Shown here one piece after another: positions 1,052 through 47,486 of a DNA stretch of 64,000 bases. The stretch's first letter is position 1. Every line of letters begins with the position of its first letter. The translations under genes were made by a program, and so were the position numbers. Under the pieces are notes generated by a model. The model made no database searches and was not told where the DNA came from. It was given only the letters and a program-made list of their open reading frames with translations. Origin of the DNA: an uncultured Acidobacteriota bacterium (GTDB taxonomy: Bacteria > Acidobacteriota > Thermoanaerobaculia > UBA5066); contig CAVZPE010000008.1 in assembly GCA_963776915.1 (NCBI GenBank), forward strand, positions 321,780 through 385,779. Direction: 5' to 3'.

Positions 1052-3235
1052 ATGTCGGCCACGAAATCGGATCTCTTCCTGGGCCGGGCCGTCGACCCCG
1101 GGACGGGGAAGACGGGCGCGGACGCATTCCGCCTCGACCCGTCCGACCTGACGACGCACGGCCTGATCGTGGGCATGACGGGCAGCGGCAAGACCGCGCT
1201 GGGCATCGTCCTCATCGAGGAGCTCCTCCAGCGCGGGATCCCGGTCCTCGCCGTGGACCCCAAGGGCGACCTCGGCAACCTGCTCCTCGACTTCCCGACC
1301 CTTTCACCGGACGAGTTCGCGCCGTTCGTCGACCCCTCCGCCGGCACGCCGGAGTCCGAGGCGAAGAGGTGGAGCGAAGGCCTGGCCGGCTGGGGCCTCG
1401 GCCCGGCCGACGTGAAGGCTCTGCTCGCGAGCCGCGACGCCGTCGTCTACACGCCCGGCTCCACGGCCGGCGTCCCGCTGGACCTGTTCGGCGCGTGCGC
1501 CGCGCCCGCCGAGGGCGCGGACGAGGAGGACGGCCGCGACCTCGTGAGCTCCTGGGTCGGCGGACTCCTCGGCCTCGCGGGACGCGACGCCGATCCCGTG
1601 AAGTCGCGCGACTTCGTCTTCCTCGCCGCCTGCGTGGACGCGCTCTGGTCGGACGGGAAGACGGCCACGCTCGAGGCGCTCCTCGAGACCGCGTCGGCCC
1701 CTCCGTTCGCGAAGGTCGGCGCGCTCTCCCTCGACACGTTCTTTCCCGCGAAGGACCGCCAGGGTCTCGTCCTGGCGCTGAACGGCCTGCTCGCGTCGCC
1801 TGCGACGGCCGCGTTCCGGCAGGGCGACGCGGTCGACGTCGGCCGCATGCTCGCGCCCGCGAGGGACGGCAGGGCGCGGCTCTCGATCGTCTCGATCGCG
1901 CACCTCGGCGACGCCGAGCGCCTGTTCGTCGTCGCGACGCTCCTCGCGCGCGTCAAGGCGTGGATGCGGACGCTCCCCGGCAGCCCCGCGCTGCGCGCTC
2001 TCGTCTACGTCGACGAGATCTTCGGCTTCTTCCCGCCCTCGGCCGAGCCGCCGACGAAGAAGCCGCTCCTGACGCTCCTCAAGCAGGCGCGCGCGTTCGG
2101 CGTCGGCGTCGTTCTCGCGTCGCAGAACCCCGTCGACCTCGACTACCGGGGCCTCGCGAACTGCGGCTGCTGGTGGGTCGGCACGCTGCAGACCGAGCGC
2201 GACCGCAATCGTCTCGGCGAGGGGCTCGTCGAGGCCGGGGGGAAGGACGCGTCCGCGCTCCTCGACAAGACGAGGAAGCGCGTCTTCCTCCTGCACGACG
2301 TCCACCGCAAGGAGCCGGCCCTCGTCGAGACGCGGTGGGCGATGAGCTACCTGCGCGGCCCGATGACGAAGTCCGACCTCGCGCGGCTGCGCGGCTCCGC
2401 GCCGCAGGGGGCGAAGAAAGCGGACGCGGCGTCCGCGCCCGCGGGCTCCGCTCCGCCGCCGCTCCCGCCCGAGTGGCCGTCGCGCTGGGTCGAGAAGCGC
2501 GGCGCAGACCTGGCGTCGGCGGCGCTCTACGTGAGGTACGCCGTGCGCTACAAGACCGCGAAGGGCACGTCGCCCGAGGCGCAGGGCGTCAAGCTCTTTC
2601 CGCTGTCGGCCGCCACGGCCGCCGACGTCCTCGAGGGCGACGCGACCGACGTGAAGCCGGAGAGCCTGCTCGAGAAGGCGCCGCGCGCGCTGCGCTACCC
2701 GGACCTGCCCTCGTGGGTGGGCCCGGCGGGCGTGAAGGCGGCGGAGAAGGCCGTGCGCTCGCGCCTCCCGGACAAGCTCGCGACGACGCTCCTGCGCGAC
2801 CCGGTCACGGGAGCGCTCTCGCTTCCCGGCGAGTCGGCCGCCGACTTCGCGGCGCGCGCCGCGGCGGGGTCCGAGCCGCCGGCCGCTCTGCGCGAGAGGC
2901 TCGAGAAGAAGAAGCGCGACCTCGCCGCGGCCGAGAGCGTCGAGCAGGGAAGAGCGATGGAGACGTACGCCTCGATCGGCACGGCCGCCCTCGACGTCCT
3001 CGGCGGGTTCCTCGGGAAGAGAAAGACGATCCGCGTGAGCAAGGTCGGGTCCGTCCTGACGAAGAAGCGCATGGAGGGCACCGCCGAGGCGAGGGTCGAG
3101 GGCCTCAAGGCCGAGATCGCCGAGCTCGAGGCCAAGCTCGCGCCGCCGGACGCGACCCGGTTCGAGAAGGTCGAGGTCGTCCCGAGCGCGTCGAGCGTCG
3201 ACGTCCTCTCGATCGGCGTGGCCTGGGTCTGCTGA
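1052..3235 (+). CDS. HerA/FtsK-like P-loop ATPase (DUF87/COG0433 type) with a long coiled-coil C-terminal region
   Basis: Start ATG at 1052 (MSATKSDLFLGR...). Walker A is GMTGSGKTALG, followed by VDPKGDLGNL. Walker B-like is ALVYVDEIFGFFP, then ARAFGVGVVLASQNPVDLDY. The C-terminus carries LEKKKRDLAAAE...EGLKAEIAELEAKL. Confidence 0.8.
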   Translation: MSATKSDLFLGRAVDPGTGKTGADAFRLDPSDLTTHGLIVGMTGSGKTALGIVLIEELLQRGIPVLAVDPKGDLGNLLLDFPTLSPDEFAPFVDPSAGTPESEAKRWSEGLAGWGLGPADVKALLASRDAVVYTPGSTAGVPLDLFGACAAPAEGADEEDGRDLVSSWVGGLLGLAGRDADPVKSRDFVFLAACVDALWSDGKTATLEALLETASAPPFAKVGALSLDTFFPAKDRQGLVLALNGLLASPATAAFRQGDAVDVGRMLAPARDGRARLSIVSIAHLGDAERLFVVATLLARVKAWMRTLPGSPALRALVYVDEIFGFFPPSAEPPTKKPLLTLLKQARAFGVGVVLASQNPVDLDYRGLANCGCWWVGTLQTERDRNRLGEGLVEAGGKDASALLDKTRKRVFLLHDVHRKEPALVETRWAMSYLRGPMTKSDLARLRGSAPQGAKKADAASAPAGSAPPPLPPEWPSRWVEKRGADLASAALYVRYAVRYKTAKGTSPEAQGVKLFPLSAATAADVLEGDATDVKPESLLEKAPRALRYPDLPSWVGPAGVKAAEKAVRSRLPDKLATTLLRDPVTGALSLPGESAADFAARAAAGSEPPAALRERLEKKKRDLAAAESVEQGRAMETYASIGTAALDVLGGFLGKRKTIRVSKVGSVLTKKRMEGTAEARVEGLKAEIAELEAKLAPPDATRFEKVEVVPSASSVDVLSIGVAWVC

Positions 3236-3399
3236 AGAGAAGAAGAGAGAAAGAGGAAGATTTTCTTAGAAGGTGAAGAGGGGCTGGGCAAGCGCGGGCG
3301 CCGCACGGTGCGGCGCCGCGGCCGCCCGCCGCCTCATTCACCTTCTAAGAAATCTTCTCTTCTCTTCTCCTTCGGTCTCTCTTTCTCTACAATCTCCCC
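3236..3399. repeat. AT/purine-rich long imperfect palindrome, copy 1 (left arm 3236-3283, GC-rich loop 3284-3331, right arm 3332-3399)
   Basis: The left arm ...GAAGATTTTCTTAGAAGGTGAAGAGGGG pairs with the right arm CCTCATTCACCTTCTAAGAAATCTTC (about 24 of 27 bp). The pairing extends into a 26-nt pure purine run and matching pyrimidine runs. The loop holds its own perfect hairpin, GGCGCCGCA-CGG-TGCGGCGCC. The element lies exactly between the HerA-like stop codon and the next start codon. Confidence 0.75.
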
Positions 3400-3783
3400 A
3401 TGCCGAAGATTCCTCCCCGCGAGTCCGTTCGCGAGCACCCGCTCTACCGCGCCGCGATGGCGGCGCAGCACGCCGCCTACCAGCTCATGCGGGACGTGCC
3501 CGCGTCCGCGAAGGCGGACGCGACGCGCCTCGTCGGCGCGCTCGTCCACGCGGGGACGTGGGCGACGGCGATCGTGGACTCCGACGTCGCCGAGAAGGAC
3601 AGGGCCGCAGCGCGCGCGGCGCTCGCGGAGTCGACCGCGCAGGCGCAGGAGATGCTCGCGCCGCTCGCGCCGTTTGCGAACGACGCGGGGATCGTGGACA
3701 CGCTGGAGAAAGAGATAGGAAAGATAGAAGAGCTTAGAAAGGTTCAGAGCGAGGCGGAGCAACGGACCGAACCGGCCGCATGA
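3400..3783 (+). CDS. hypothetical helical protein (possibly four-helix-bundle-like); the C-terminal ~25 aa are encoded by palindrome copy 2
   Basis: 127-aa ORF with strong G/C third-position bias through about nt 3700. From there the tail switches to A/T-ending codons (aaa ata gga ata gaa ctt aga gtt) where the repeat arm begins. There is no SD; TACAAT lies 6 nt upstream of the ATG. Confidence 0.55.
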   Translation: MPKIPPRESVREHPLYRAAMAAQHAAYQLMRDVPASAKADATRLVGALVHAGTWATAIVDSDVAEKDRAAARAALAESTAQAQEMLAPLAPFANDAGIVDTLEKEIGKIEELRKVQSEAEQRTEPAA

Positions 3784-3827
3784 ATTCCCGCGGCCCTCTT
3801 CACCTTCCAAGAAAAAGCGCCTTTCCC
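3705..3827. repeat. AT/purine-rich imperfect palindrome, copy 2 (left arm 3705-3754 inside the ORF tail, right arm 3794-3827 after the stop)
   Basis: The left arm is GGAGAAAGAGATAGGAAAGATAGAAGAGCTTAGAAAGGTTCAGAGCGAGG. The right arm is CCCTCTTCACCTTCCAAGAAAAAGCGCC, whose reverse complement is ..TTTTTCTTGGAAGGTGAAGAGGG. It has the same core as copy 1. CCAAGAAA (3806-3813) can also pair with TTTCTTGG (3873-3880). Confidence 0.65.
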
Positions 3828-3862
3828 GTCTGTGCCGAAGGCAGGTCGACGCGCGAGGGAGC

Positions 3863-4207
3863 CTATTCTTCTTTCTTGGTCCCCAGCACCACGAGGACGA
3901 TCAGGAGCAGGAGGACGATGAGGCCGATGACGATCGTCGTCGTGCGCGACGAGCCGGCGGGCGGCTCGGGCGCGGGCGCCTCGGCCTTCGCGGGAGCGGC
4001 GGCGGTCGTGGCCGGCGCGGCGGATGCCGTCGTCGCGGGCGCGGGCGCGGCCGTGTCGGGTGCCGTGGCGGTCGTCGCGGGCGCGGCGGTGCCGGTCGCG
4101 GCGGCGGCGGCCGGCGCGGCGGGGCTCGCCGTCGACTGGGCGAAACCGGCGGACGCGGCGAGAAGGATCACGGCGAGGACGGCGGTGAGCGCGGAGCGAC
4201 GTTTCAT
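3863..4207 (-). CDS. secreted Ala/Pro/Thr-rich low-complexity protein with a C-terminal membrane anchor
   Basis: The N-terminal signal peptide is MKRRSALTAVLAVILLAASAGFAQS. About 60 aa of A/P/T repeats follow, then PEPPAGSSRTTT, the hydrophobic helix IVIGLIVLLLLIVLVVLG and KKEE. Confidence 0.55.
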   Translation of the reverse strand: MKRRSALTAVLAVILLAASAGFAQSTASPAAPAAAAATGTAAPATTATAPDTAAPAPATTASAAPATTAAAPAKAEAPAPEPPAGSSRTTTIVIGLIVLLLLIVLVVLGTKKEE

Positions 4208-19474: not shown

Positions 19475-22400
19475 TCACCTCACCGGCATCGCCGGCCGTT
19501 TCGGCCTGACCGGCGGGTTCTTCTTCAGCTCCTCCATGACGATCGCGATCGCCTTCTCGAGCTGCGGGTCGTGGCCCGCGATGACGTCGGCGGGCGTCTG
19601 CTCGACCTCGACGTCGGGCGGGACGCCGACGTTCTCGACGCCGAAGCCCTCCTCCGGCGTCCAGAAGCCGAGGTTCGGCGCGGTGACGACCGCGCCGTCC
19701 ATGAGCGTCGGGAAGCCGAGGATGCCGACGAGGCCGCCCCACGTGCGTTCGCCCACGAGCGTCCCGACCTTGAAGTGCCGGAACATCCACGGCAGGAGGT
19801 CCCCACCGGAGCCGGCCGTCTCGTCGATGAGCATGACCTTCGGCCCCTGGATCGACGCCGACGGCGTCTTGAGGTCTTCGCCGTAGCGCATCGCCCACCA
19901 GGCGATCGGCTGGCGGGTCAGCGCCTCGATGTAGTAGTCCGCGACGCTGCCGCCGCCGTTGAAGCGCTCGTCCACGATGATCGCGTCCTTCGCGGCCTGC
20001 GGGTAGAAGTAGCGCTTGAAGTACGTGTGGCCGAGGCCCGCCGTGTTCGGGACGTAGACGTACGCGACGCGCCCGCCCGTCGCCGCGTCGACCTTCCGGA
20101 GGTTCCCTTCCACCCAGTCGCGGTTGCGGAGCTGGGCCTCGCTCGGCACGGGGACCACCGGGACCGTGCGGGAGCCCCTGCCGTCGGGATGGGGGCCGAC
20201 CGTGAGGTCGACGATCGTCCCGGCCGTCCTCTCGAAGCGGGAGTAGAGGTTCTCGGGCGGCGCGAGATCCCTGCCGTTCACGGCGAGGAGATACTCGCCC
20301 GCCTTCACCTCGACGCCCGGCTCGGAGAGCGGCGCGCGAAGCTCGGGGTTCCAGTTCAGGCCGCCGAACACCTTCTTGAAGCGGTAGCGGCCGTTCGCGA
20401 CCTCGTAGTCCGCGCCGAGGAGGCCGCCCGGCACCGGGGGCACCTCGAGAAACGACTCGCCGGGCGTGTTGCGGTGGTGGCCGACCGAGAGCTCGCTGCA
20501 CATCCACTGGATGAGGCGGTTGAGGTCGCCGCGCGACGAGAGGGCCGGCAGGAACGCCGCGTACTTCGCCTTCAGCGCGGGCCAGTCGTGCCCGTGCATC
20601 TTCGGGTCGTAGAAGTAGTCGCGGTTCACGCGCCAGGCCTCGTCGAAGATCTCGGGCCACTCGGCGCGCGGGTCCACGCGCACCGCGATCGCGTCGAGCT
20701 TCAGCTTGCCGCCGTCGTCCTTCGCGTCCGACTTCGCGTCGACCTTCCGGGGAGACGAGGCGACGATGGACCACGACTCCTTTCGCAGCGGCTCTCGCGA
20801 CGACTCGTTCAGCTTGAAGAGGATCTTCTTCCCGTCGAAAGAGACGAAGTAGTCGTCGGCCTCGGGGACCACCGTCACGGTCTTGCGGTCCCTGAAGTCG
20901 AAGCGCTGGACGGACGTCTTGCCGTCCGCGTGCCTCTCGAAGAAGAGCTGGCCCGCGCCGCCGGCCTGCAGGTTCGAGATCTCGGCGGGGTGCACGGGCA
21001 GGTCGACGATGCGGAGGTTGAAGCCGTCGAAGTCGATGACGACGGGTTCGGGCTTCTTCGGGTGCATGCCGCGGTCGCCCTTGCCGTCCGTCCGTGCGGC
21101 TGCGTCAACGCCCTTGGAATCGGCGGGGTGGCCACCCTTGCCGCCCTTCGAAGAATCTTCTTTCTCTTCTTCTCTTTCGTCTTCCTTCTTCCCGTCCTTC
21201 GCCGCGGCCGCGCCCTTCTCCTCGTCGCTCTCTTTCGCGAGCGGCGAGGGCGTGCCCTTCTTCAGCGTCGCGACGTAGATCGCGTTCGTGGTGCGCGCGT
21301 CCGCGTTCTGCAGCGAGAACCAGTTGCGCTGCGGGCCCGCGTCCGTGGAGGCGAGGAAGTAGAGGAGCTTGCCGTCCCTGTCGAAGGCGGGGTCGGAGAC
21401 GTCCGAGAGGCCGTCCGTGAGGGGGAACGAGCGGTCCTCCTCGACGGAGTAGACCCAGGCCGTGCGGATGTACGTCGGGCCGGAGAGCGTGTACGCGACC
21501 CAGCGCGAGTCCGGCGACCAGGACCCGCGCAGCATCCGCTGGCGGACCGGCGCGTAGAGGCGCTCGGACGCGATCTTCTTCGAGGCGCCGCTCGCGACGT
21601 CGACGATCCACAGGGTGAGGGAGTTGTCCGTGAGGACGATCTTCTTCCCGTCGGGGGAGAACGCGAGCGCGTCGTAGAAGCCGGCGCCGGGGACGTTGAT
21701 CCTCTTCGCGGCGCCTCTTCCGTCCTGCGCCCTCACGACGATCCGGTTCTCGCCGCCTTCGTCCGAGACGTACGCGATCGACTTGCCGTCCGGCGACCAC
21801 GCGGGCGCCGTCTCGTGGACGGCCGTCGTCTCCGTGAGGTTCCGGGCGTCGCCCTTCTCGGCGGGCACGGTCACGATCTCGCCCCGGAACTCGAACGCGG
21901 CCCGGGCGCCGGAGGGGGAGAGGGCCGCGCCGCGGATCCATTTCGCGCCCTTCGCCCAGCGCGGGCGCGTCTCGAGGAGGTCGCCCGCGACGGTGATCGC
22001 GAGGTCGGTCGTCTTCTTCGAGGCGACGTCGTACAGGTGGAGCGTCCCGGCCTGCTCGAAGACGATCCGGCCCTCGGCCGCCGCCGCGTTCAGCACGGGG
22101 AAGTCCGAGTAGCGGGTGAGGGGAGAGAGAGAAAGAGATTTCTTCGACGGGTCATGTGCGTCGGCCGTCTGGTCGAGAACGTAGAGATTGAACTCGCCGT
22201 CGCGATCGGACCTGAGGTACAGAGTGTGGCCGAGCCAGACGGGGTCGACGTCGTTGCAGCGCGTCGCGGGCTGCGGGACCTTCACGACCGCGTGCGACGC
22301 GACGTCGTAGAGCCAGATCGTCGAGACGAGGCCGCCGCGGTAGCGCTTCCACTGCAGGTGCGCCGGGTTGTTCGGGTTGTAGGCGATGGTCCGGCCGTCC

Positions 22401-22891
22401 GGGGAGAAAACGGCGCGGGCGGCGTACGGGATCGGCAGCGCCGTCTCGAGGCCGCCTCCCACGGGCACGGTGTAGAGCTGCGCGTGGCGGTTGTTGACGG
22501 CGGCGCGCGGAGAGGTGAAGAGGACGGACTTCCCGTCGGGCGTGAAGTCCTGGACGACGTCGCGGCCGGGGTGCCACGTGAGGCGCTTCGGCACGCCGCC
22601 CGCGGCGGGGACGACGAAGACGTCGAGGTTGCCGTCCAGCTCGGCGCTGAACGCGAGGAGCGCGCCGTCGGGGCTGAAGGCGGGGCGCATCTTGACGCCG
22701 GGGCCGGACGTGATGCGCTCGACGCCGGAGCCGTCGAGGCGGCACGTCCAGACGTCGTTCCCGTACACGAACGCGATGCGGTCCTTCGAGAGCGCGGGGT
22801 CCGTGAGCATCTTCGACGGTCCGGCGGGATCCGCGAACCCGGGAGATGAGAGGAGGAGGCAAAGGCCGGCGGCGGCGAGACGCACGCGCAT
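19475..22891 (-). CDS. tricorn protease homologue (TolB-like beta-propellers + PDZ + S41 peptidase domain)
   Basis: 1138 aa, intact. The N-terminus has a signal peptide and repeated PxFSPDG propeller motifs. The C-terminal S41 core includes IIVDERFNGGGSVADYY and MLIDETAGSGGDLLP. Confidence 0.9.
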   Translation of the reverse strand: MRVRLAAAGLCLLLSSPGFADPAGPSKMLTDPALSKDRIAFVYGNDVWTCRLDGSGVERITSGPGVKMRPAFSPDGALLAFSAELDGNLDVFVVPAAGGVPKRLTWHPGRDVVQDFTPDGKSVLFTSPRAAVNNRHAQLYTVPVGGGLETALPIPYAARAVFSPDGRTIAYNPNNPAHLQWKRYRGGLVSTIWLYDVASHAVVKVPQPATRCNDVDPVWLGHTLYLRSDRDGEFNLYVLDQTADAHDPSKKSLSLSPLTRYSDFPVLNAAAAEGRIVFEQAGTLHLYDVASKKTTDLAITVAGDLLETRPRWAKGAKWIRGAALSPSGARAAFEFRGEIVTVPAEKGDARNLTETTAVHETAPAWSPDGKSIAYVSDEGGENRIVVRAQDGRGAAKRINVPGAGFYDALAFSPDGKKIVLTDNSLTLWIVDVASGASKKIASERLYAPVRQRMLRGSWSPDSRWVAYTLSGPTYIRTAWVYSVEEDRSFPLTDGLSDVSDPAFDRDGKLLYFLASTDAGPQRNWFSLQNADARTTNAIYVATLKKGTPSPLAKESDEEKGAAAAKDGKKEDEREEEKEDSSKGGKGGHPADSKGVDAAARTDGKGDRGMHPKKPEPVVIDFDGFNLRIVDLPVHPAEISNLQAGGAGQLFFERHADGKTSVQRFDFRDRKTVTVVPEADDYFVSFDGKKILFKLNESSREPLRKESWSIVASSPRKVDAKSDAKDDGGKLKLDAIAVRVDPRAEWPEIFDEAWRVNRDYFYDPKMHGHDWPALKAKYAAFLPALSSRGDLNRLIQWMCSELSVGHHRNTPGESFLEVPPVPGGLLGADYEVANGRYRFKKVFGGLNWNPELRAPLSEPGVEVKAGEYLLAVNGRDLAPPENLYSRFERTAGTIVDLTVGPHPDGRGSRTVPVVPVPSEAQLRNRDWVEGNLRKVDAATGGRVAYVYVPNTAGLGHTYFKRYFYPQAAKDAIIVDERFNGGGSVADYYIEALTRQPIAWWAMRYGEDLKTPSASIQGPKVMLIDETAGSGGDLLPWMFRHFKVGTLVGERTWGGLVGILGFPTLMDGAVVTAPNLGFWTPEEGFGVENVGVPPDVEVEQTPADVIAGHDPQLEKAIAIVMEELKKNPPVRPKRPAMPVR
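21145..21193. repeat. solo arm of the AT/purine-rich repeat family inside the tricorn gene
   Basis: The plus strand reads CCTTCGAAGAATCTTCTTTCTCTTCTTCTCTTTCGTCTTCCTTCTTCCC, against the copy 1 right arm CCTTCTAAGAAATCTTCTCTTCTCTTCTCCTTCGGTCTCTC. It is translated (minus strand) as KKEDEREEEKEDSSKGG with A/T-ending codons. Confidence 0.6.
22118..22150. repeat. solo arm of the AT/purine-rich repeat family inside the tricorn gene (opposite orientation)
   Basis: GAGGGGAGAGAGAGAAAGAGATTTCTTCGACGG, against the copy 1 left arm GAGAGAAAGAGGAAGATTTTCTTAGAAGG. It is translated (minus strand) as DPSKKSLSLSPL, the same PSKKS reading as the arms at 3341-3360 and 46410-46430. Confidence 0.5.
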
Positions 22892-23005
22892 GAGGACCCC
22901 TTTCGGAGGATTCGATCGCAGGACGGGATTCTGGCACGCGCCGCCCGTCGCGCCGCGGGAGCGTTCCGGGCCGCGCGGCGCTCCGCCGGCCGACGCCCTC
23001 CGGGC

Positions 23006-44809: not shown

Positions 44810-44839
44810 CTTAAGGCGCGGGGCCGGAGATCCCCTGCG

Positions 44840-47486
44840 TCAGCGCGACGTCGGCGCCGCGGGCGCGTGCGGCGCGAGCCCGGAGCCCGCGCCGGCCGAC
44901 ACGAGGTTCACGAAGAACCGGTACGCGCCCGGGACGCCGGCCGGCAGCTGCCGGAAGAACGCGTAGCCCGTGTAGACGTACGCCCCCTTGCCGACCCTCG
45001 CGTAGAGGAGGCCGCCCTTCTTGTCGGTCTCGCCGGGGTCGTGCGACGCGATCGGGGTCTCGTACCGCGGGTCCCACGTGCCCGCGAAGTAGAGCCCGCG
45101 CTCCTGCACCCAGCCGTCGAAGTCGGCGGACGTGAGCCTGTTCGGGAAGTTCAGGAGGGGGCTGCCCGGCTCGAGGAACGTGACGGGGGCCTCCTCGACG
45201 GTCACGCGGTCGCGCGAGATCTTGAACGGGTACGGCCCGATCTCGTTCGTCACGAGGTCGCCCGTCGTGTCGTACTGGACGACGAGCGGTGCCGCCCTTC
45301 TCGGCGTACGCGAGGAGGCGGCCCTCGACCTGCTTCAGCCGCGGCCGCGTGTTGTACGCGCGGATGCCCGTCACGATCGCCGCGTAACGCGAGAGGTCGC
45401 CGGTCTCGAGGTCGTCGTCCGAGAGCAGCGTCACGGAGTACCCCATCTGCCGGAGCGCGTCGGGGCCCGCGTCGCCCGAGCCCATCACGTAGCCGATCGG
45501 CGCGCGCGGCGCCTTCACGTCGATGCGCAGGACGCGCGCCTCGGCGGGCGGGAACAGGGTCTGGAGCGGAATGTGGGGATAGTCGACGCGCACCACGGAA
45601 TGCGATTCCGTGCGCCCGGCGACCGTCGTCTCCGCCGAGAGCGTGCCGGAGGCCTGGCCCGGCGGCGGCGTCACCGTGAACGCCACGGGCTTCTCCTCGC
45701 CCTTGGCCGCGAGCTCGAACAGCACCTCGGCCGGGGTGACGTGGAACCCGGCGGGCGCCCGGAGGCGCACCGCGCCCGAGACCTTCGGCGCTCCCGCGAC
45801 GAGCGTGACGCGCACCGTCTTCGCGGCGCCGCTCCCGAACGCGTAGACCTTCTCGTCGAGGTTCGCCATGACGGGCGGGACGATCTCGAACGGGCTGTAC
45901 ACCTCGCCCCTCACGGGGTCGGTCCGGCGGAAGACGACGGGGGTCTCGAACGGGATCGTCACCCCCGCGACGCGCACGGCGAACCGCGCGACGAGCGGCG
46001 GCGCGTTCTCGGGCCGGCCGACGAGACGGGGATCCGGCACGGAGTAGAGGCCCTTGCCGGCGGGCGCGAGCAGCCAGTAAGGCTGCGTGGTGGCGGCGTC
46101 CGCCGGGAGCGCCACCGTCGCGGTCCCCCGCAGCGGCTCGTTCGGCGCGAGGGCGCCGCCCGGGAGCGGCGCGGCGACGCCGCCCTCGACCTCGACGTTC
46201 TCGAGCGACGCCGGGAAGGCCGAGCGGTTCAGGGCCATCGTCGCGACCTTGACCCCGGTGCCCGGCGCGGCCGAGACGTCGGCCGCGATCGCCTCCGTCC
46301 ACAGCCCGAGGCACGCCCGGATCGCCTCGGCGACCTCGGCGCGCTTGGCGGCGAGGAGGGGATCCGGGGAGGAAGACGACGCCGGATCGACGAGAGACGA
46401 GGATTCGGATTTCTTAGAAGGGGAAGAGGGGGAGGGCGGAGCGGCCTGCTGAGCCCCCGCCTCGAGCATCCGGCCGATCGCCGTCCACGCCTCCACGAGC
46501 CCCGGGACCGACGCCGCCGGGTCCGATTCGCGAAATCCTTCCTCCACCTTTCTAAGAATCTTTCCGATTTCTTCTCCCTCGGCTCCGTATCTCTTCCAGG
46601 AGAGATCGACGCCCTCGAAGAGGTCTTCCTTCGCCGGCTCGCCCGCGATCAGCTTGAAGTCGTTCAGCCAGACGCCGCGGCGCTCGGCGGCGCCGAAGCC
46701 CTGGCTCTTGTGCATGGAACGGCTCTGGCCGGCGATCTCGGTGTACGAGCGGCCGAGGAGCGCGTTGTAGCCGCCGAGGTCCACCGCGATCTCTCCCGGC
46801 GCCGGCGTCCGCGGGGCGTTTGGTCCGAAGCGGAAGACGTTCCAGAGGACCCGCTTCACCTGCCAGGGCCGGACCCACTGGAGCTGCTCGGGAAAGCGCT
46901 TCGGGTCGGCCGCGGCCGTGAACGCCTCGACCGCGAGGATCGCGGAGGCGGTGTGGTTGCCGTGGCCTCCCTCGCCGGTCGTCGGAAACCGCGTGACGAT
47001 CACGTCCGGCCGGAAGGAGCGGATGACCCAGACGACGTCGGAGAGGACCTGCTCGTGGCCCCAGATCGCGAACGTCTCCCCGGGGTTCTTCGAGTAGCCG
47101 AAGTCGATCGCCCGCGTGAAGAACTGCCGCGCGCCGTCGATCCGCCGCGCCGCGAGGAGCTCCTGCGTGCGCAGGACGCCGACGAGCTCGCCGGTCTCGT
47201 TCCCGATCAGGTTCTGGCCGCCGTCGCCGCGCGTGACGGAGAGATAACCCGTCTCGAGAAGGCGCCCCTTCGCGCCCCAGGCGAGGAAGGCCGAGTTCTC
47301 GTCGTCCGGGTGGGCCGCGAGGTAGAGCACGCTGCCGACGACGTTCAGCTTCTTCAGCTGGAGCGCGATCTCGGAGGCGCTGAGGTTCTCGGCGGGCGCG
47401 GCGGCCCGGGCCGGGCGCGCGGCGAGGGCGATCAGGGCGGCGAGGACGGGGAGGGCGCGGAGCAGGCGGCGCGTCATGCGCCGCAT
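44840..47486 (-). CDS. PIG-L/LmbE family deacetylase fused to a C-terminal ThuA/GATase1-like domain (one frameshift near 45285)
   Basis: A signal peptide is followed by LYLAAHPDDENSAFLAW...VTRGDGGQN...GHGNHTA (PIG-L motifs). The C-terminus continues in the frame of track ORF 44840..45253 (..VVQYDTTGDLVTNEIGPYPFKI...YVYTGYAFFRQLPAGVPGAYRFFVNL). Confidence 0.85.
46391..46582. repeat. AT/purine-rich imperfect palindrome, copy 3 (arms 46391-46436 and 46537-46582), inside the PIG-L gene
   Basis: The left arm is CGAGAGACGAGGATTCGGATTTCTTAGAAGGGGAAGAGGGGGAGGG. The reverse complement of the right arm is CCGAGGGAGAAGAAATCGGAAAGATTCTTAGAAAGGTGGAGGAAGG. The arms share ATCGGA..TTCTTAGAA..GG.G.AG. They are translated as EGEEIGKILRKVEEG and PPSPSSPSKKSESSSLV with A/T-ending codons. 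Confidence 0.7.

Follow-up and report, generated by a model that had tools for sequence, protein, structure and literature searches.

Palindromic repeats that sit in frame within genes are well known as a curiosity of the AT-rich, reduced genomes of Rickettsia, and the locus described here raises the question of whether a repeat of this kind can also reside in the coding sequence of a lineage with high GC content. The locus lies in a 64-kb stretch (the window, 64,000 nucleotides) of contig CAVZPE010000008.1 from an uncultured Acidobacteriota bacterium of the Thermoanaerobaculia; the window has a GC content of 72%. It is a gene for a PIG-L/LmbE-family deacetylase, and the initial annotation had proposed that a 192-nt palindrome was inserted in frame into this gene in the manner of a Rickettsia palindromic element (RPE). 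Comparison with orthologues divides that palindrome into two parts of different origin. The downstream arm was brought in with a variable insertion rich in Ser, which lies in a disordered loop separating a pair of helices. The inverted partner of this arm did not arrive by insertion: it is the ancestral helix that precedes the loop (...V/I-G-K-I-L-x-x-A/V-E...). Both arms are held across species at the nucleotide level. The locus is composed of the following parts.

44811 to 47486, minus strand: host gene, PIG-L/LmbE-family deacetylase with a large C-terminal extension (PF02585 at residues 54-188).
46391 to 46436, plus strand, antisense to the gene: downstream arm, a true copy of the repeat family, made up of a purine tract and the core GATTTCTTAGAAGGGGAAGAGGGG at 46408-46431.
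46437 to 46536, minus strand: inter-arm spacer of 100 nt, GC-rich ancestral coding sequence FRESDPAASVPGLVEAWTAIGRMLEAGAQQAA that aligns with all orthologues.
46537 to 46582, minus strand: upstream partner arm, codons of a native helix altered so as to resemble the core, read EEIGKILRKVEEG (residues 303-317).

Both arms are present where the initial annotation had placed them and form low-GC islands; on the plus strand, the arm at 46391-46436 is purine-rich and the arm at 46537-46582 is pyrimidine-rich. The open reading frame (ORF) passes through both, as EGEEIGKILRKVEEG (residues 303-317) and PPSPSSPSKKSESSSLV (residues 350-366), and the downstream arm is translated as SPSSPSKKSESSS (residues ~352-364) in a frame that is referred to below by its peptide, PSSPSKK. 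The two arms hold the exact 9-mer TTCTTAGAA in inverted orientation, and elsewhere in the window this 9-mer occurs only in the arms at 3263/3343. With one mismatch or fewer it has 12 matches in the window against 1.1 expected, and 12 was reached in none of 100 shuffles. The codons of the arms had been described as unlike the rest of the gene, and this was borne out using 13 other genes of the window as the codon usage reference. Among all 15-codon windows of the PIG-L gene, the arms rank as the two most atypical, with log-likelihoods of -31.4 and -29.6 (gene mean -10.5, standard deviation 5.0), the upstream arm being the most atypical of all. The rare codons concerned make up small shares of their own amino acids (ATT 3%, CTT 3.8%, AGA 1.9%, GGA 7%, TCT 2.5% and CCT 2.8%).

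The resemblance between the two arms was found to be weaker than had been claimed. They had been thought to match each other better than any other copy, which is incorrect: the arm at 46391-46436 aligns with the arm at 3.26 kb at 40/51 positions with a score of 43, versus 32/45 positions, 3 gaps and a score of 21 with its own partner. Nor is the shared ATCGGA specific to the pair, as TCGGA stands immediately 5' of the core in 20/140 arms from unrelated loci, and in the upstream PIG-L arm these bases correspond to an ancestral pair of Ile/Val-Gly codons. The plain alignment score of the PIG-L inverted repeat is equalled by 9.6% of random window pairs, and its composition-weighted score falls in the top 0.13%. 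A profile of the repeat family, described below, matches the downstream arm at 46390-46437 with E = 2.8e-9 and misses the upstream arm of the window's gene (E > 10). The codons of the upstream arm, GAA ATC GGA AAG ATT CTT AGA AAG GTG GAG GAA GG, depart from the family core by one additional base (AGAAAGGTG or AGAAGGGTN in place of AGAAGGTGA), and this extra A avoids the TGA that the core consensus would give in that frame.

An alignment of the protein was built from 37 orthologues out of hundreds of full-length relatives, the closest of which are labelled Thermoanaerobaculia or Acidobacteriota; orthologues are 93-55% identical and all intact. The upstream-arm peptide and the 33 inter-arm residues are present in every aligned orthologue, those of other phyla included, and the length differs by one residue. 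Orthologues as low as about 42% in identity share the confident helix of the upstream arm. The upstream-arm peptide corresponds to GGESVASLLAEAERTF in an orthologue of 62% identity and to GGEAVGKILEEAERTY in one of 57%. Outgroup PIG-L loci obtained by a protein-guided search of metagenomes (40-52% identity, 32-72% GC) share the helix W-x-R-x-x-G-G-E-x-V/I-G-K-I-L-x-x-A-x-x-x-F in ordinary local codons, such as GTC GGC AAG ATC CTG CAG CAG GCC. Distant orthologues encode the upstream-arm residues by unrelated GC-rich or AT-rich codons, and the rare-codon encoding of this helix (ATT CTT AGA AAG GTG) is seen only in the clade of the window. The downstream arm lies within a Ser/Pro-rich insertion of variable length, which is missing in orthologues of 67% identity or less and in some orthologues contains two PSKK copies. 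Both arm segments had been suspected of being lineage-specific insertions; this applies to the downstream arm and not to the upstream one. With an ancestral upstream arm and interior, and an indel that contains the downstream arm alone, the palindrome of 192 nt as a whole was not what was inserted. For the upstream arm, this is the outcome that the initial annotation had itself named as refuting its proposal.

Structural modeling with AlphaFold was carried out on the orthologue alignment, giving a mean predicted local distance difference test score (pLDDT) of 74.5. In this model the segment 350-366 belongs to a loop at residues 346-372 that is disordered (pLDDT 32-34) and links helix 323-346 to helix 376-393, in keeping with the suggestion that the segments might be surface loops. 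The same suggestion fails for residues 303-317, which lie inside a confident alpha-helix (297-316, pLDDT ~96). The spacer at 46437-46536 holds the start of the confident helix 323-346.

The DNA of ten PIG-L orthologues was compared codon by codon. The string ATT CTT AGA A(A/G)G GTN GAG of the upstream arm persists in orthologues down to 69% protein identity, as does (TCA/TCC) CCT TCT AAG AAA TC of the downstream arm, and neither rare-codon string is present in the orthologue at 62%. ATT CTT AGA is retained in 5/6 close orthologues. Codons ending in A/T are the same as in the window at 10/15 positions in the arms, versus 1/29 elsewhere in locus L083 and 3/29 elsewhere in locus L084, and this difference indicates that both PIG-L arms are constrained, or continually restored, at the DNA or RNA level. 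The earlier proposal that the pairing itself is maintained was argued from the best match between the arms, which is wrong; that pairing matters is instead supported by the synonymous-site conservation seen here and by the enrichment of partners across the family.

Two further features of the PIG-L gene deserve mention. Inside the insertion of many orthologues lies another conserved module, ...RGEGPKQ(T/M)DPLL (e.g., L082:11130-11200 and L084:11090-11160), which is encoded by GGTCCGAAGCAAA..GACCC, a small hairpin, and is missing from the gene in the window. In addition, a frameshift is present near 45289, where a single additional C gives GGCACCGCT vs GGCACGCT in the 93%-identical orthologue L081. 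The 891-codon frame of the initial annotation does read through both arms, but its last part is an artefact of this 1-nt insertion, which puts the final ~150-158 codons out of frame; the true C-terminus is the ORF at 44840-45253 on the minus strand. The frameshift reflects either an error of sequencing or a pseudogene of very recent origin.

The repeat family to which the downstream arm belongs was sought in one genome per bacterial and archaeal species using the pattern TTTCTNAGAAGGNGAAGAGG, which identified at least 111 stretches. Of those 111, 105 are high-GC, and the free positions of the pattern are occupied by T in 92% and by T/G in 75/25%. The 80 stretches listed come from at least 27 metagenome-assembled genomes (MAGs) named Thermoanaerobaculia or Acidobacteriota, while six low-GC stretches are chance matches. 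The arms are therefore not confined to the window, as the initial annotation had expected, and the family is specific to the Thermoanaerobaculia clade. A scan of viral contigs gave two matches, both on low-GC contigs and hence attributed to chance, and no description of the family was found in the open-access literature on repeats of Thermoanaerobaculia or Acidobacteria. The family consensus is a 24-nt low-GC core, GATTTCTTAGAAGGTGAAGAGGGG. Conservation stops sharply after GGGG and on the opposite side fades into a variable purine tract, (GAAGAG)n / (GAR)n; internal symmetry of the core is limited to the 9-nt TTCTNAGAA. A second motif, (G/T)(T/A)CCGAAGAG, is located 20-45 nt 5' of the core in 11/140 arms (L092, L104, L112, L124, L125, L146, L152 and others), which suggests a longer subfamily of the repeat. 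A Shine-Dalgarno function of the core (AGAAGGTGA) was considered and set aside, given that copies occur in both orientations and inside genes.

Family arms tend toward convergent pairs, and copies lie in transcribed, promoter-free DNA. Searching 1.03 Mb of related sequence with a profile built from the scan matches gave 143 arms (E < 0.01), of which 125 had flanks long enough for a pairing census. In 67 of these (54%), a core in inverted orientation, with 3 mismatches or fewer over 14 nt, stood within 300 nt on the GGGG side, compared with 3-10 of 125 in three control configurations, and strong arms no more than 300 nt apart form 8 convergent pairs and 0 divergent ones. Spacers range from 9 to ~250 nt, many being ~40-50 nt; they are unrelated between loci and sometimes consist of the end of the neighbouring gene. 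Genes on either side of an element converge in 4 cases, are co-directional in 13 and never diverge, and 27 further elements are intragenic; the purine tract frequently starts at a stop codon. Orthologous arms are kept across species in RNase R, ABC ATPase and NamZ genes and at intergenic sites. Outside the PIG-L site, 270 kb of unselected sequence contains ~4 strong and ~4 weak elements, a rough estimate of about one per 35-70 kb.

The tolerance of a palindromic repeat in high-GC coding sequence resembles that of RPEs, and PIG-L is one of many cases. This part of the original proposal stands: by a local test based on GC content at third codon positions (GC3), 27/125 elements (~22%) are intragenic, among them copies in verified genes, and 19 of the 27 are paired. 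The core is stop-free in three of six frames, DFLEGEEG (forward), PSSPSKK (reverse) and PLHLLRN (reverse), and a fourth frame, FLRRGRG, is open with the G variant of the core. Among the intragenic elements PSSPSKK is used 13 times and DFLEGEEG 9 times, and the typical in-frame reading is ...DFLEGEEG - spacer - SSPSKKS(S)n.... Host genes verified by Pfam include Pol III alpha, with an HHH_6 domain ~40 residues longer, RNase R, with the arm within the RNB domain, and GHMP kinase; in a tandem ABC ATPase and a MeaB-glyoxalase fusion, the arm lies in a linker. The ABC ATPase linker in L106 contains both arms in one short insertion with a 9-nt spacer. NamZ orthologues differ by an indel of 5-7 residues, reading FLPLSSPSKKISSFSPPLSR with the arm and FRPGGHGR-------VPLSR without it. 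The RNase R of E. coli has a native ...ILQG... where DFLEGEEG stands here. Some genes (L155, L167, L147:6087 and similar) appear to end inside an arm. As the core gives TAG, TGA or TAA in three of six frames, the repeat may create or replace C-termini besides adding internal loops.

Several known repeat systems share some of these properties. RPEs are dispersed palindromic repeats, often in frame in unrelated housekeeping genes, where they add a conserved peptide at fold-compatible positions (PMC10969869). The present family is likewise a multi-copy dispersed palindromic repeat that places a conserved in-frame peptide (PSSPSKK/DFLEGEEG) in unrelated genes; about a fifth of its elements are intragenic, and the inserted PIG-L arm occupies a disordered loop. 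RPEs, however, are ~100-150 bp long, are inserted whole and occur in AT-rich, obligate intracellular Rickettsia, whereas the family here consists of ~24 nt plus a purine tract around unrelated spacers in free-living Acidobacteriota of ~70% GC, and the PIG-L copy has one arm and an interior that belong to the ancestral protein. It is set apart from the RPE sequence families by its distribution (Thermoanaerobaculia/Acidobacteriota MAGs), not by a comparison with RPE consensus sequences.

The architecture of the family is closer to that of REPINs, the hairpin-forming doublets of repetitive extragenic palindromic (REP) sequences, and its behaviour is RPE-like. As in REPINs, two conserved ~25-nt repeats are inverted around a spacer and can form a hairpin, and singlets are common. 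REPINs and REPs lie behind genes and persist for long at orthologous sites (PMC3116915, PMC3337134, bioRxiv 10.1101/2021.07.10.451892), as do copies of this family. A single REP already forms an imperfect palindrome and commonly bears a GTAG or CGTC tag (PMC3733652), whereas the core GATTTCTTAGAAGGTGAAGAGGGG has neither such a tag nor an internal REP hairpin. REPs are also extragenic, unlike the fifth or so of family copies in coding sequence, and are tied to a REP-associated tyrosine transposase (RAYT) that they flank, while the only Y1 gene in the 1.03 Mb has unrelated repeats.

[quoted passage not shown] Like them, the family is short, non-autonomous, hairpin-forming and co-transcribed with genes, and some MITEs give in-frame fusions. 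MITEs have outer terminal inverted repeats, a conserved interior and target-site duplications; the family instead has its sharp edge inward, a fuzzy purine tract as its outer edge, and interiors that are unrelated or native coding sequence. The copies at 3.2-3.8 kb of the window differ from intrinsic terminators in having no T-run, their 3' flank being a C/T tract. Uptake signal sequences (USS) and DNA uptake sequences (DUS) are known to occur as inverted pairs in terminators. The family resembles them in being clade-specific, present in both orientations, found in tolerated coding frames and arranged in inverted pairs behind genes (PMC2346458). Uptake sequences reach hundreds to thousands of copies per 2-Mb genome (PMC2346458), in contrast to a family whose density is orders of magnitude lower, whose motif is longer and whose copies come with indels and purine tracts.

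The explanation that we favour, and regard as probable although far from secure, is a non-autonomous repeat of the REPIN/RPE type whose paired hairpin state persists. At PIG-L, one arm was inserted and the ancestral helix was recoded as its partner. The helix may already have been weakly core-like, with the ancestral ...GTC GGC AAG ATC CTG... serving as a pre-adapted recruitment site, and a few replacements together with synonymous changes could have converted it to ATT CTT AGA AAG GTG, the 1-nt offset presumably sidestepping the TGA of the core. What persists would be the state of paired, hairpin-forming arms in transcribed DNA or RNA, and two paired arms can make a long hairpin around an unrelated GC-rich spacer. 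Partners may be co-inserted, as seems plausible for short-spacer copies, or recruited from nearby core-like sequence, a pattern that RNase R would share. Such recruitment could proceed via selection for pairing or via quasi-palindrome template switching, which are not separable here.

Several observations weigh against this explanation. The synonymous-site conservation of the PIG-L arms suits a host-selected signal at least as well as it does a selfish repeat. L199 is without the downstream insertion yet has a recoded upstream helix (AGA TTG CTT AGA AAG GCG GAG GAA), which puts in doubt whether insertion or recoding came first. The RNA fold of the PIG-L region is no better than shuffles (z = -0.15), and arm-arm duplex energies in six orthologues are mixed (z -0.4 to -5.6) and confounded by the purine/pyrimidine tracts. 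The location census relies on a home-made GC3 test applied to the whole element and on small counts. Nothing transposase-like was found between arm pairs 0.6-3 kb apart. Using phmmer with an approximate RAYT query, the sole Y1_Tnp gene in the 1.03 Mb was identified at L173:5718-6725 (PF01797, E = 1e-10, IS200-like), and its flanks carry a perfect inverted repeat of another kind, GGTCAGGTCTGTGTTATGTGTTAT, which is absent from the rest of the 203 loci. No target-site duplication could be defined for family elements. Their spacers, being unrelated between loci and sometimes native coding sequence, are unlike those of a normal transposable unit, and the inward-pointing sharp edge of the core is the reverse of MITE terminal repeats.

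A more far-reaching proposition is that the repeat, besides inserting into genes, brings about or selects for changes that turn native codons next to it into its mirror image, leaving essential enzymes with hairpin pairs at the nucleotide level that are maintained for long evolutionary periods. We put this forward tentatively, as less likely than not. If true, examples would be the change from ...VGKIL... to ATT CTT AGA AAG GTG in PIG-L and from ...ILQG... to DFLEGEEG in RNase R, and it would imply either a clade-specific factor that reads paired arms in RNA or DNA, or a genome-wide templated (quasi-palindrome) conversion.

Given the synonymous-site conservation, the strongest rival is a purely host-selected signal, in which the core is a binding site or an RNA/DNA structural signal (an mRNA-stabilising or processing hairpin, or the site of a clade-specific protein) that selection generates and retains where it is of use, with copies arising mainly by convergent substitution. 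Conservation of both PIG-L arms at synonymous sites, the origin of the upstream arm by substitution in an ancestral helix, the retention of orthologous arms in RNase R, ABC ATPase, NamZ and intergenic sites, and the absence of copies between divergent genes are all as such a signal would predict, and TTCTNAGAA is a small palindrome of the kind a dimer binding site would have. We nevertheless consider it rather unlikely, as the arms bring extra DNA with them (the PIG-L loop, the NamZ indel, the excess in Pol III HHH_6), the variable purine tract is superfluous to any binding-site model, and the need for a signal in the middle of a linker in housekeeping enzymes is hard to see. The same persistence at orthologous sites, and the making of the upstream PIG-L arm by point changes, would also fit a DNA uptake signal of USS/DUS type, a competence-favoured motif accumulating by molecular drive in tolerant coding positions and in inverted pairs behind genes. 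The motif is clade-specific and found on both strands, about half of the arms are in inverted pairs after genes, coding copies are limited to compatible frames, and known uptake sequences are also intragenic, with orientation and position biases (PMC2346458). A density of ~4 strong and 4 weak elements per 270 kb is, however, far under that of known uptake sequences, insertions and purine tracts accompany the arms, and a 24-nt core is long for such a motif, which makes this reading improbable.

The remaining readings concern the PIG-L palindrome more directly. That a single ~190-nt palindromic element, arms and interior together, was inserted in frame as in Rickettsia could be argued from the inverted, in-frame arms, from the existence of the family and from genes such as that of the ABC ATPase in L106, in which both arms do share one short insertion. 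At PIG-L, however, the orthologue alignment refutes this model, the indel holding the downstream arm only and the ancestral upstream arm and interior varying by one residue in length across all orthologues, and the interior belongs to a confident helical hairpin in the AlphaFold model; we give it very little credence. Equally slight is the prospect of an intragenic inverton, whose arms would be recombination sites and whose intervening segment would flip and recode the protein. Inverted repeats do flank a coding segment, and the usual frame pair DFLEGEEG ... PSSPSKK is, by reasoning, mirror-symmetric, such that translation of an inverted spacer would use the antisense frame aligned by GC3, in most cases an open one. 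Yet in ~20 orthologous element pairs across species the spacer is always co-oriented with its flanks, spacers of 9-50 nt leave too little length for synapsis, the sites are too many, and no arm-linked recombinase was found. Finally, the proportion of random window pairs that equal the plain alignment score, together with the RNA fold at the level of shuffles, might suggest a chance likeness of low-complexity, charged or Ser-rich coding segments. This is hardly credible against a rare exact 9-mer common to the family, the E = 2.8e-9 of the downstream arm, rare codons conserved across species and the family-wide partner enrichment.

Behaviour comparable to that of the Rickettsia repeats is thus now seen in free-living, uncultured Acidobacteriota of ~70% GC. 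The conserved unit of this family is one short arm, and the partner arm can derive from native coding sequence. Different species retain both arms at synonymous sites, an argument that something in the cell perceives the pairing. The family marks linker or loop positions in many housekeeping proteins, and the rare-codon clusters and low-complexity insertions to which it gives rise have an effect on the annotation and alignment of Thermoanaerobaculia MAGs. It is also usable as a clade-specific sequence tag.

Other copies of the family in the window are listed below.

3232 to 3397, plus strand: intergenic paired copy with cores at 3260-3283 (plus) and 3331-3354 (minus) and a 45-47-nt GC-rich palindromic spacer.
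3704 to 3830, plus strand: second pair, with a left arm-like segment at 3704-3755 and a right core at 3793-3816 (minus; E = 1.2e-4).
21137 to 21200, minus strand: degenerate solo arm in a tricorn-like protease gene, purine tract and GATTCTTCGAAGGG, read EEKEDSSKGGK.
22115 to 22150, plus strand: degenerate solo arm in the same tricorn-like gene, read DPSKKSLSLSP (weak profile match, E = 5.9).

The copy at 3232-3397 begins at the stop codon of a HerA-like gene and ends 3 nt short of the ATG at 3400. Its profile matches have E = 1.3e-8 and 3.6e-5, and its RNA is predicted to fold into a hairpin of -98.4 kcal/mol (z = -8.1); the profile matches in this part of the window are at 3254, 3362 and 3829. 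A search of the whole window against Rfam returned nothing at gathering score, with generic 'miRNA precursor' matches below threshold on the 3.3-kb hairpin, and a terminator/promoter scan of 3000-4000 found no site. Next to the Y1_Tnp gene of L173 (5700-6690) runs a pyrimidine tract whose counterpart in the window is part of the hairpin at 3232-3397, and this gene therefore appears to occupy the place of the core of that element.

In the second pair, the segment 3704-3755 is the 3' end of the ORF at 3400-3783, translated LEKEIGKIEELRKV, and the core of the right arm lies past the stop codon. This ORF encodes 127 residues with no Pfam match, and at its end an extra A solves the frame in the way seen in the PIG-L upstream arm, confirming the correspondence of frames noted by the initial annotation. 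An orthologous pair is present in L173 (ETLEKRMEELREVKSE...). The same annotation had also compared the PIG-L arm with PSKKS readings at two other places in the window, of which the one at 3341-3360 falls in a spurious intergenic ORF and the one at 22115-22150 in a real gene. The latter is the tricorn-like protease gene at 19478-23005 on the minus strand, which has PD40, Tricorn_C1, PDZ_Tricorn and Peptidase_S41 domains. Its two degenerate arms, being 950 nt apart and in divergent orientation, do not constitute a pair.

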